UHGV virus genome: UHGV-0136196
From: a virus
Reading direction: 5' to 3' (one strand)
Length of the DNA: 10,610 nucleotides
In this document: one piece after another, positions 186-9,152 of the stretch
How the letters are laid out: the number at the start of each line of letters is the position of its first letter
Position numbering within the stretch: the stretch's first letter is position 1
Program-made: the position numbers and the translations under genes
Notes under the pieces: generated by a model
Seen by the model: only the letters and a program-made list of their open reading frames with translations
Database searches by the model: none
What the model was told of the DNA's origin: nothing

Positions 186-932
<747 letters not shown>

Positions 933-934
<2 letters not shown>

Positions 935-949
935 ACACCGTGCGTGTTG
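933..949. promoter_or_regulatory. Operator OR2
   Basis: TAACACCGTGCGTGTTG, a 17-bp site identical to lambda OR2 as I recall it, spaced 6 to 7 bp from OR3 and OR1. Confidence 0.85.
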
Positions 950-982
950 ACTATTTTACCTCTAGCGGTGATAATGATTGCC
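947..982 (+). promoter_or_regulatory. PR promoter (-35 TTGACT at 947..952, -10 GATAAT at 970..975, 17-bp spacer) driving cro
   Basis: Consensus-like sigma70 hexamers overlapping OR2 and OR1, followed by the strong Shine-Dalgarno AAGGAGG (989..995) and the cro ATG at 1000. Confidence 0.85.
957..973. promoter_or_regulatory. Operator OR1 (variant)
   Basis: TACCTCTAGCGGTGATA. Lambda OR1 as I recall it is TACCTCTGGCGGTGATA, so position 964 is A rather than G. Confidence 0.8.
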
Positions 983-999
983 TGTACTAAGGAGGTTGT

Positions 1000-1200
1000 A
1001 TGGAACAACGCATAACCCTGAAAGATTATGCAATACGCTTTGGGCAAACCAAGACGGCTAAAGATCTCGGCGTATATCAAAGCGCGATTAACAAGGCCAT
1101 TCATGCAGGCCGAAAGATTTTTTTAACTATAAACGCTGATGGAAGCGTTTATGCGGAAGAAATAAAGCCCTTCCCAAGTAACAAAAAAACAACTGCATAA
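1000..1200 (+). CDS. cro: Cro repressor
   Basis: The 66-aa translation ([66 protein letters not shown]) is essentially lambda Cro, with a strong RBS upstream. Confidence 0.96.
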
Positions 1201-1207
1201 GTAACAC

Positions 1208-1253
1208 CGCTCTTTTCACAATGGACATTCGTCCTACGTCGCTGACAAAGCGA
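1208..1253 (+). promoter_or_regulatory. nutR-like N-utilisation site: boxA (CGCTCTTTT, 1208..1216) and a boxB hairpin (TCGCT-GACAA-AGCGA, 1239..1253)
   Basis: A boxA consensus-like element sits immediately after the cro stop, followed about 22 nt later by a 5-bp stem with a 5-nt purine-rich loop. The loop/stem resembles the P22-type boxB (GCGCU GACAA AGCGC) rather than lambda boxB (GCCCU GAAAA AGGGC). Confidence 0.6.
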
Positions 1254-1338
1254 GCCCCAAGATATCTGACCAACTAAGGCCATATGCGTTTCCACGCATA
1301 CCTTTCAACTAACTATTCACTATTGGAAATATTAAGAA

Positions 1339-1635
1339 ATGACACAAACAAGTTACAGCAAACTATCCCAGCGCGACGTTGATCGCGCTGAAACTGATTT
1401 ACTCATCAACCTGTCAACGCTTACCCAGCGCGGTCTGGCAAAGATGATTGGCTGTCATGAATCGAAGATAAGCAGAACGGACTGGCGGTTTATTGCTTCG
1501 GTCCTGTGTGCTTTCGGAATGGCATCAGACATCAGTCCGATTAGCAGGGCTTTTAAGTATGCGCTTGATGGAATCACCAATAAAAAACGCCCGGCGGCAA
1601 CCGAGCGTTCTGATCAAATACAAATGGAATTTTAA
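1339..1635 (+). CDS. cII: CII-like transcriptional activator (lysogeny establishment)
   Basis: 98 aa. The C-terminal 20 residues (ITNKKRPAATERSDQIQMEF) match the lambda CII C-terminus almost exactly. The N-terminal two thirds, including the HTH-like region, are divergent. Position after cro and nutR is as expected. Confidence 0.8.
   Translation: MTQTSYSKLSQRDVDRAETDLLINLSTLTQRGLAKMIGCHESKISRTDWRFIASVLCAFGMASDISPISRAFKYALDGITNKKRPAATERSDQIQMEF
1348..1361 (-). promoter_or_regulatory. Candidate CII-binding -35 element of a PRE-like promoter (TTGC-N6-TTGT on the minus strand)
   Basis: The minus strand reads TTGCTGTAACTTGT inside the first codons of cII, the same position and orientation as the lambda PRE TTGC-N6-TTGC motif. 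One mismatch to the consensus repeat. Confidence 0.4.
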
Positions 1636-4586: not shown

Positions 4587-4691
4587 ATGACCATCTACAT
4601 CACTGAGCTAATAGCAGGGTTATCGTTACTAATGGTTCTTACTGTATATATTATTAAGTATATTCTTTATGCGAATAAAAAAACCAATTGA
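4587..4691 (+). CDS. Hypothetical small hydrophobic peptide (34 aa)
   Basis: The ATG overlaps the primase-helicase stop (TAAATG). The translation MTIYITELIAGLSLLMVLTVYIIKYILYANKKTN looks like a single transmembrane helix. Lies in AT-rich DNA, and its 3' end overlaps the HNH gene start. Confidence 0.2.
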   Translation: MTIYITELIAGLSLLMVLTVYIIKYILYANKKTN

Positions 4692-5280
4692 TCACGATGA
4701 GCTTCTGTCAACATTATCATATGACTCAGAAACAGGAATATTTAAATGGCTAAAAACAAATTCAGTAGTAAGAGTAAAAGGTAGTATTGCTGGAGGTGTT
4801 AGTGGTGGTTATATATGCATTAGCATAAATAATGTTTTGTATTATGCGCATAGGCTTGCTTGGTTCTATGTATACAAAAAATGGCCTCCTAAGTTTATTG
4901 ATCATGTAAATGGGAACAGACTTGACAATAGGATTTCAAATCTAAGACTGGCAACAGAGGAGCAGAATGCAAGAAACATTGTAGGTAATAGGTTAAACAC
5001 ATCCGGTGCGATTGGAGTGTCTTGGGATAAGACAACTGGCAGGTGGAAGTCTTATGTTGGTTATAAAAATAAGACAATATCGTTAGGGTATTTCGATAGC
5101 AAAGAAGATGCAGCATTCATAGCAGCACTAGCAAGAAAGAAACTATATGGAACTTATGCGAGTAAAGCACTTAATTGCGAGCATGAGCTTTTATCTCAAT
5201 TTAATAATGATGAGGATAAACTTGCGGAATATCTTAAGGAAAAATCTAAAAGGACTCGAAAGCGTGTTAAAAAAAGATAA
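4669..5280 (+). CDS. HNH family endonuclease with AP2-like DNA-binding domain (homing-endonuclease-like)
   Basis: 203 aa. HNH motif region (IDHVNGNRLDNRISNLRLATEEQN), an AP2-like segment (GVSWDKTTGRWKSYVGYKNKTISLGYFDSKEDAA), and a basic C-terminal tail. The gene is markedly AT-rich compared with its neighbours. Confidence 0.8.
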   Translation: MRIKKPIDHDELLSTLSYDSETGIFKWLKTNSVVRVKGSIAGGVSGGYICISINNVLYYAHRLAWFYVYKKWPPKFIDHVNGNRLDNRISNLRLATEEQNARNIVGNRLNTSGAIGVSWDKTTGRWKSYVGYKNKTISLGYFDSKEDAAFIAALARKKLYGTYASKALNCEHELLSQFNNDEDKLAEYLKEKSKRTRKRVKKR

Positions 5281-7994: not shown

Positions 7995-8643
7995 TGGCAG
8001 CAAATACCGAAATATTTGGGTAGTTGGCGATCTGCACGGATGCTACACGAACCTGATGAAAAAACTGGAGACGATAGGATTCGACACCAAAAAAGACCTG
8101 CTTATCTCGGTTGGCGATTTGGTCGATCGCGGTACAGAGAACGTCGAATGCCTGGAATTAATCACATTCCCCTGGTTCAGAGCTGTACGTGGAAACCATG
8201 AGCAAATGATGATTGATGGCTTATCAGAGCGCGGAAACGTCAATCACTGGCTGCTTAATGGCGGTGGCTGGTTCTTTAATCTCGATTACGACAAAGAAAT
8301 TCTGGCCAAAGCTCTTGCCCATAAAGCAGATGAACTTCCGTTAATCATCGAACTGGTGAGTAAAGATAAAAAATATGTCATCTGCCACGCCGATTATCCT
8401 TGTGACGAATACGAGTTTGGAAAGCCAGTTGATCATCAGCAGGTAATCTGGAACCGCGAACGAATCAGCAACTCACAAGACGGGATCGTGAAAGAAATTA
8501 AAGGCGCTGACACGTTCATCTTTGGTCATTCGCCAGCAGTGAAACCGCTCAAATTTGCCAACCAGATGTATATCGATACCGGCGCAGTGTTCTGCGGAAA
8601 TCTCACATTGATTCAGGTACAGGGAGAAGGCGCGTGGGCATAA
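7972..8643 (+). CDS. ninI: Ser/Thr protein phosphatase (lambda PPase, NinI)
   Basis: Metallophosphatase motifs are present (GDLHG, GDLVDRG, GNHE). The N-terminus [23 protein letters not shown] matches the lambda phosphatase start as I recall it. The ORF track begins upstream at 7897, but that start overlaps ninH and lacks an RBS; the ATG at 7972 has an AAAGAG RBS. Confidence 0.88.
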
Positions 8644-9152
8644 GAGAACTAAACCTCACCAAAGAACAGCATGAGTGGCTGAATGGCTGGCTTGAACTGT
8701 GGGGCGCATGGGTTTATTCAGGTCGTCTGGAAAAGCGCATGAGCAGCGTAATAGCGAAGTTCATGGAGAGCGTAGAGCCGGGAAGAGTTATGACAAGGCC
8801 AATGTGCAATGATGATGATGGAATGTTGATTTCTCAGGTCGTTGATTCCGTCATGTACATTGACAAGAAAGCCTTTGGCATCCTCCTCAGCTACTACGCT
8901 CATGGTTCATCTAAGCGAGCAATTGCATCCTACTATCACGCGACTGCAAAGCCACGCAAGATGTGTGGACGTGGTGGCGAGGGATGGAGAAAACCTTCAC
9001 TGGCAACCTGTAGAAACGAAATTGACGACATCCTGAAAGCGTCATTATTTGTTTTATACCAGCCAATGCAAAATGCTTTCAAAATGCGTAAACGTGTTGA
9101 GAAAGTTAAGCATGTTGCTGTTAAAAACCTTGACATGCAATTATCCATTTAG
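8634..9152 (+). CDS. Late-gene antiterminator Q-like protein (not the lambda Q sequence; resembles the QuuD / phage 21-82 type)
   Basis: 172 aa. GTG start with a GGGAGAAGG RBS. It lies between the phosphatase gene and the PR'-like promoter, exactly where Q sits in lambdoid phages. The N-terminal LELWGAW and PMCNDDDGM motifs are reminiscent of QuuD-type Q proteins. No similarity to lambda Q as I recall it. Confidence 0.6.

Follow-up and report, generated by a model that had tools for sequence, protein, structure and literature searches.

The window analysed here, the whole 10,610-nt stretch of virus genome UHGV-0136196, opens onto an immunity region of lambda type, to the right of which lie a very probable nutR site at 1208-1253 and then cII (Table 1). 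The cI repressor was 98% identical to that of lambda and 99% identical to those of HK97 and mEp234, and Cro was 97% identical to lambda Cro (HK97 Cro is of lambda type as well, at 95%). OR3 and OR2 have the lambda sequence, and OR1 departs from it at one of 17 positions (G to A). A preliminary description of this DNA had called cI, cro and the OR operators lambda-type, and these comparisons bear it out.

Table 1. Features at the left end of the window, with positions in the 10,610-nt stretch
Feature	Position	Strand	Basis or remarks
Start of leftward gene	1-99	minus	first 33 codons only in window
cI repressor, 237 aa, lambda immunity type	186..899	minus	Pfam HTH_3 and Peptidase_S24
Operator OR3	910-926		comparison with lambda
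Operator OR2	933-949		comparison with lambda
PR promoter, TTGACT-17-GATAAT	947..975	plus	consensus scan; position as in mEp234 annotation
Operator OR1	957-973		comparison with lambda
cro, 66 aa, lambda type	1000..1200	plus	Pfam Cro PF09048; stop codon 1198-1200
Boundary sequence with right-hand junction (last cro codons, stop, first 6 nt of boxA)	1193..1213	plus	alignment and 20-nt identity profile
nutR boxA, CGCTCTTTT	1208..1216	plus	annotated putative boxA in mEp234
nutR spacer, 22 nt, CACAATGGACATTCGTCCTACG	1217-1238	plus	
Spacer hairpin, GGAC-AUUC-GUCC	1223..1234	plus	in both MFE and centroid folds
nutR boxB, UCGCU-GACAA-AGCGA	1239..1253	plus	predicted target of the N arginine-rich motif
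nutR-cII intergenic region, tR1 equivalent	1254..1338	plus	95-100% identical to H-19B nutR/tR1 region
PRE -10	within 1254..1338	minus	by homology, position from mEp234 annotation
Hairpin, TATGCGT-TTCC-ACGCATA	1283-1300		between boxB and cII
cII, chimeric	1339..1635	plus	about 80 first codons of HK97/H-19B type, C-terminus NKKRPAATERSDQIQMEF of lambda type

The window is itself a metagenome contig from ENA, and the closest complete E. coli genome matched it at 97%. The locus could be followed leftward on a Logan assembly contig (L012), which we reached by an identity look-up of the 265-aa replication protein. This contig showed 0 mismatches to the window over an overlap of 10,585 nt and runs 5.1 kb further left, where it carries OL1-3 and PL of lambda type; HK97 has a lambda-type OL/PL as well. 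OR1 and OL2 (L012 4104-4120) differ from lambda by the same substitution of one G by A (CTGGCGG to CTAGCGG), and OL3 has one difference too. In the assembly collection, 2,600 indexed blocks contain exactly this cI protein. Downstream of cI, in the slot that holds rexA/rexB in lambda, is a gene whose 301-aa product has a BstA_C domain (PF26567) and which is complete at L012 4325-5230; in other prophages with an identical cI, this spot is taken by HicA/HicB, a KilA-N protein, a CbiA/AAA_31 ATPase or a DUF1828 protein.

The boxA of the nutR site begins 8 nt past the cro stop. Both boxA and boxB agree in position, base for base, with the "putative nutR boxA/boxB" of GenBank EF120460 (the mEp234 immunity region), and the boxB hairpin that had been noted right of cro in the preliminary description is present at the positions annotated in that record. 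Relative to the P22 nutL boxB, the nutR boxB matches at 13 of 15 positions, the two differences being a compensatory change of the outermost pair from G-C to U-A. Between boxA and boxB lies a second hairpin that the preliminary description overlooked and that is typical of H-19B-type nut sites; it is identical in the nutR of g341c, SPN9CC and VT2-Sakai. Subtracting its 12 nt from the 22-nt spacer leaves 10 nt; the P22 spacers measure 10 nt in nutR and 11 nt in nutL, and those of lambda 8 nt and 7 nt, respectively. Spacer dyads of this sort are reportedly the "reducer" elements that Neely & Friedman (Mol Microbiol 2000) described in the H-19B nut sites, and the same work is said to have found that H-19B N requires NusA but not boxA, NusB or S10. 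The locus has the attributes of a nut site: it is located between cro and cII, a boxA close to CGCTCTT(T/A)A precedes a boxB hairpin that has a 5-bp stem and an A-rich pentaloop beginning with G, and a cognate N and nutL are found in the same genome. A scan of the whole window at Rfam gathering thresholds matched no family, a result that neither supports nor refutes a nutR because curated RNA models do not cover nut sites.

On L012, the order leftward is OL/PL, a nutL leader containing GCGCTGACAAAGCGC and, about 180 nt later, a gene for an N protein of 127 aa. The nutL boxB of this phage (GCGCUGACAAAGCGC) is the P22 nutL boxB at all 15 nt. This nutL has two spacer hairpins (fold z = -2.04), and a search within it for a consensus boxA, that of P22 included, found none. 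N was 98% identical to N of H-19B, HK97 and mEp234 and 100% identical to N of 933W/EDL933-Stx, Min27 and several Stx1 phages. It matched the Pfam family N_peptide (PF25694) at 57.5 bits, the family that P22 gp24 matches end to end at 152 bits, and it does not fall in N36 (PF11438), the family of lambda N. RefSeq annotation of E. coli genomes does not show the intact gene for a 127-aa N of this type as a normal CDS (L002 7354-7839 and L003 7382-7765); the only call there is a 69-nt pseudogene fragment at its 3' end, named as an incomplete antitermination protein/regulator.

The arginine-rich motif (ARM) of this N has the core RSRRRER and reads GNSRSRRRER where P22 has GNAKTRRHER. Over the longer stretch, FKGNSRSRRRERLKAKALAN of this phage aligned without gaps to FAGNAKTRRHERRRKLAIER of P22, with F, G, N, R, R, E, R and A identical and K/R, T/S, H/R and I/L as conservative replacements. 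Set against the residues through which P22 N(14-30) contacts its RNA, the first half of the motif is conserved (N, K to R, T to S, R, R, H to R, E, R), and the second half has diverged from the solved P22 peptide (R10 to L, R11 to K, I15 to L, R17 to N). The RNA in that structure is the P22 nutL boxB 15-mer itself (PDB 1A4T; contacts listed in PMC11480772). When N was searched against PDB sequences, the short N-peptide entries of P22, lambda and phi21 did not come up, and the sole match was a spurious one to citrate lyase (E = 1.5). The preliminary description had proposed that boxB was P22-like and not lambda-like, and that N, which it expected outside the window, would have a P22-like RNA specificity in turn. 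With a GACAA loop, a boxB one compensatory pair away from that of P22 nutL, and an N that belongs to the Pfam family of P22 N and shares F-x-G-N-x-x-x-R-R-x-E-R with its ARM, the genome supports that proposal.

The RRRER core of the ARM is common to lambda N as well, and ARM similarity alone is therefore no proof of P22-like specificity. Together with a boxA and preceding 20 nt that are nearly identical to lambda, and with flanking immunity genes of lambda type, the shared core would also suit a nutR that has diverged from lambda's and still works with a lambda-type N. We consider this extremely improbable, given that the same phage has no lambda-type N and carries one of PF25694 instead, that its loops are GACAA and not GAAAA or GAAGA, and that identity to lambda is 35-65% from position 1220 onward. 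The GACAA loop and the non-N36 N rule out a strict lambda N/nut system.

The likeness to P22 might also be taken literally, with the module being P22's own N/nut, gained in a recent recombination event with a Salmonella phage like P22, and its N being a gp24 orthologue fully interchangeable with P22 N. An identical nutL boxB, the GACAA loop in both nut sites, the common Pfam family and the near-identity of the C-terminal 22 residues of N are all as such an origin would predict, and we nonetheless judge it very unlikely from the remainder of the comparison. N was about 38% identical to gp24 overall in a MAFFT alignment and is 27 aa longer, and BLASTP aligned only the C-terminal 30 residues of the two proteins (residues 99-127, 20 of 30 identical). 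The flanks of the nut sites are unrelated, the spacer has 22 nt with a hairpin and not 10-11 nt, nutL lacks a P22 boxA, and the module is 97-100% identical to those of the E. coli phages HK97, H-19B and 933W. These sequence comparisons largely refute a strict gp24 orthologue, no full-length similarity having been found.

Judged by its sequence, then, the module is not P22's own and is of the HK97/H-19B/933W N-nut type. Its nutR is identical to that of HK97 and mEp234 at 46 of 46 positions, the full 46-mer recurs exactly in many E. coli prophages, and H-19B differs from it only at boxA position 5 (C to A). The leader from nutR to cII was 96.6-99.3% identical to those of H-19B, 933W, HK97 and mEp506 (96.6% for the H-19B nutR region). 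We are highly confident that 1208-1253 is the nutR of an HK97/H-19B/933W-type system in which antitermination depends on N. From the loop and the motif we infer that its ARM/boxB pair falls into one recognition class with P22 N and boxB, with an RNA specificity that would be P22-like. In the searchable literature we found neither an explicit comparison of H-19B and P22 boxB nor a reciprocal binding or antitermination experiment with P22 N.

The combination of lambda immunity with an N/nut system of the HK97/H-19B/933W type is already known and is common in E. coli prophages. Two wild phages, mEp234 and HK106, were deposited as lambda-immunity phages with their nut sites annotated, and these deposits are said to be those of Degnan et al. 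(Mol Microbiol 2007). The segment from OR through cro and nutR to PRE was present at a coverage of at least 80% in 118 of 5,426 complete E. coli genomes.

We fetched 80 IMG/VR loci through alignment of N, 72 of which carry this N with both nut sites. N was 99-100% identical across the 80 loci, and they inform on linkage and on the immunity cassette and hold no within-type covariation. Both boxB sequences were invariant in all 72 loci, and the interval between the nut sites held five Cro types, the lambda type in 21 of the 72. The spacer stem read GGGC in place of GGAC in seven of the 72 loci, with pairing kept as G.U, and the C-to-A variant of boxA (CGCTATTTT) was present in 42.

Hairpins with a 5-bp stem and a 5-nt loop occur 12 times per strand in the window, so that the boxB hairpin taken by itself is not unusual, and the fold energy of 1201-1262 is unremarkable (z = -1.16), hairpins of 4-5 bp being too small for thermodynamic significance. 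In H-19B, moreover, the nut site overlaps the rut site of the Rho-dependent terminator tR1 (PMC3526286). On these grounds the hairpin might be incidental, or might serve only tR1/rut with no role in recognition by N, a reading we find barely credible. By chance, 0.02 hairpins with a 5-bp stem and a GACAA loop would be expected per window, and the only one found sits at the canonical nut position; its sequence does not vary among the 72 loci and is paired there with a nutL of the same loop; and loop type co-varies with the ARM across the N family. For H-19B, the spacer and boxB were protected by N plus NusA/G (PMC3526286), which contradicts a chance or terminator-only hairpin in that phage, and we reject such a hairpin here.

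The covariation that could be found comprised the comparison of nutL, nutR and P22, the single G.U variant of the spacer stem, and a switch of loop and ARM in more distant members of the N_peptide family. Among the latter, g341c has an N that is 70% identical to that of this phage, and its nutL spacer hairpins are conserved. Both g341c and VT2-Sakai keep the nutR scaffold, with the spacer hairpin GGACATTCGTCC, a TACG linker and the UCGCU/AGCGA stem, and both have a GAAA loop, one C fewer than GACAA, at nutL and nutR (nutR of g341c at L105 2460-2473; VT2-Sakai in L107). Their ARMs, NGSAAGRRRERR and KGTAASRRRARR, follow the pattern G[ST]AA[GS]RRR as opposed to GN[SA][RK][ST]RR, and this pair of loop and motif presumably stands for a different N specificity. 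SPN9CC has an N 86% identical to this one with the ARM KGTSRARRRER, and its pentaloops are GACAA at nutR and GUCAA at nutL, the latter with a C.C apposition like that of P22 nutR. On a scaffold that is otherwise conserved, a change of loop type goes with a change in the residues immediately preceding the arginine run, and this phage and P22 both combine GACAA with G-N-x-[KR]-[ST]-R-R. This covariation is the best available sequence-level support for the P22-like RNA specificity suggested above.

A stronger proposal, to which we give an even chance, is that the ARM and both boxB loops were switched together as a coupled specificity pair within one N/nut scaffold, in which the N sequence around the motif, the boxB stem and the spacer hairpins are conserved. 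There would then be two classes, one of GACAA with GN[SA][RK][ST]RR (this phage, HK97, 933W and P22) and one of GAAA with G[ST]AA[GS]RRR (g341c and VT2-Sakai), the two loops being one C apart at nutR. If true, the N of this phage would cross-react with nut sites of P22 type and not with those of VT2-Sakai type, and co-resident Stx, HK97-like and P22-like prophages would sort into trans-activating and insulated groups by one loop nucleotide.

The lambda-type immunity genes and the nut site meet in a short boundary sequence. In a 20-nt profile, identity to lambda was 85-100% up to about 1200 and 75% in 1200-1219, before the values already given from 1220 on; identity to H-19B, which has a different immunity, rose from about 45-65% (up to 1199) to at least 95% (1200 onward). 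At three diagnostic positions (1194, 1201 and 1206) of the stretch shared by the phages (CTGCATAAGTAACACCGCTCT), the window has the bases of H-19B/HK97, which places the junction in the last cro codons through boxA. A mosaic junction had been proposed between cro and nutR, and the one we found, at about 1193-1213, is essentially there. The left junction is CATCAGCAGGACGC, a conserved sequence in the opening stretch of the PL transcript that all six phages compared have in common, P22 included. The immunity cassette, from OL/PL through cI to OR/PR and cro, is an interchangeable module flanked by two nut sites, and these go together with N. The last Cro codons (1193-1200) are part of a boundary sequence, CTGCATAAG, that is conserved across immunity types, and the five unrelated Cro types that precede this nutR end in ...A-A-stop or ...T-A-stop (Cro C-termini in L021-L100).

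Further right, the hairpin between boxB and cII has an equivalent in g341c and SPN9CC, TATGCGC-CAGT-GCGCATA, with a compensatory change of T-A to C-G; it is a "putative tR" in the g341c annotation, and the dyads of lambda and P22 at the equivalent position differ from it. The cII protein was 87% identical overall to that of HK97, 86% to that of H-19B and 41% to that of lambda. A second junction lies near 1575, where the sequence is lambda-like again at the 3' end of cII and in an oop-like terminator; the lambda-type end of cII coincides with an oop-terminator-like stem and T-run on the minus strand at 1584-1611. Within the gene for the 265-aa replication initiator (HTH_36), 3.9 tandem copies of a 21-bp unit (GGTGGGGCAGGAGCTGCCCGG) at 2089-2173 encode a GGAGAA(R) peptide repeat, and by analogy with the ori inside lambda O these repeats may be origin iterons. 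An ORF of 203 aa at 4669-5280, between the primase/helicase gene and the nin region, has HNH_3 and AP2 domains and is homing endonuclease-like; it is absent from several otherwise similar prophages. The late antiterminator Q at 8634-9152 is of PF06530, as against PF03589 in other prophages with an identical cI, and the holin after it is of the lambda holin family. The make-up of Q and holin is further mosaicism downstream.

For this N-nut type, readthrough of downstream terminators under the action of N has experimental backing in the H-19B orthologue. Its nutR has two hairpins, replacement of the ARM arginines of 12-RSRRRER-18 by alanine abolished antitermination on a nutR/tR1 template, and the N mutants R3H, S11F, R15C/P and R18P were defective for antitermination at tR1 (PMC3526286). 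All residues mutated in that study are present in the N of this phage.

In the mechanism we favour, nutR would be transcribed from PR right after the lambda-type cro, and boxB in the nascent RNA would form a 5-bp hairpin with a GACAA pentaloop, to be bound by the arginine-rich N-terminus of the 127-aa N, whose gene lies some 3.5 kb leftward, beyond the window, with a matching nutL between PL and N. NusA would bind the spacer. The spacer hairpin would take 12 of the 22 spacer nucleotides out of the linear path, bringing boxA and boxB to the P22 distance of about 10 nt. N would then modify RNA polymerase through its C-terminus, leading to readthrough of the Rho-dependent tR1, which overlaps and follows nutR, and of later terminators. 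By that readthrough cII, the replication genes, the nin region and Q would be expressed. The lambda-type cassette between the nut sites, bounded by short conserved sequences, would be one of several interchangeable cassettes.

For annotation it is useful to know that lambda-immunity prophages in metagenomes usually come without lambda's own N/nut system, and that N of the present type is intact in these elements, though automated pipelines often miss it or call it a pseudogene. Cross-recognition of boxB between HK97/933W-type N and P22 N would bear on cross-talk between co-resident prophages.

In P22 (NC_002371), nutL consists of boxA CGCTCTTTA, 11 nt and boxB GCGCTGACAAAGCGC, and nutR of the same boxA, 10 nt and boxB CCGCC-GACAA-CGCGG. 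The present module resembles it in the GACAA pentaloop of both nut sites, in the boxA core CGCTCTTT, and, in the protein, in the ARM pattern F-x-G-N-x-[KR]-[ST]-R-R-x-E-R and the C-terminal LP-VA-YAAG-RKSKQ-TAR. It differs from P22 in the middle region of N and in the flanks of the nut sites, which are unrelated, in a spacer with a hairpin where that of P22 is unstructured, and in its host, E. coli as opposed to Salmonella. With the N/nut system of lambda it has in common the genomic position and logic, a nearly identical end of cro and start of boxA, a 5-bp boxB stem and the RRRER core, whereas lambda boxB (GCCCTGAAAAAGGGC in nutR and GCCCTGAAGAAGGGC in nutL) has GAAAA and GAAGA loops on a GCCCU/AGGGC stem in place of GACAA. 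The phages of the HK97/H-19B/933W group have the nutL boxB, both nutL spacer hairpins and the cII leader as they are in this phage, and in HK97, mEp234 and HK106 the same N/nut type is also paired with lambda-type cI, cro and operators. HK97 itself differs from this phage in the 3' end of cII, which is lambda-like here, in the gene downstream of cI, which here encodes the BstA_C protein, and in the replication module.
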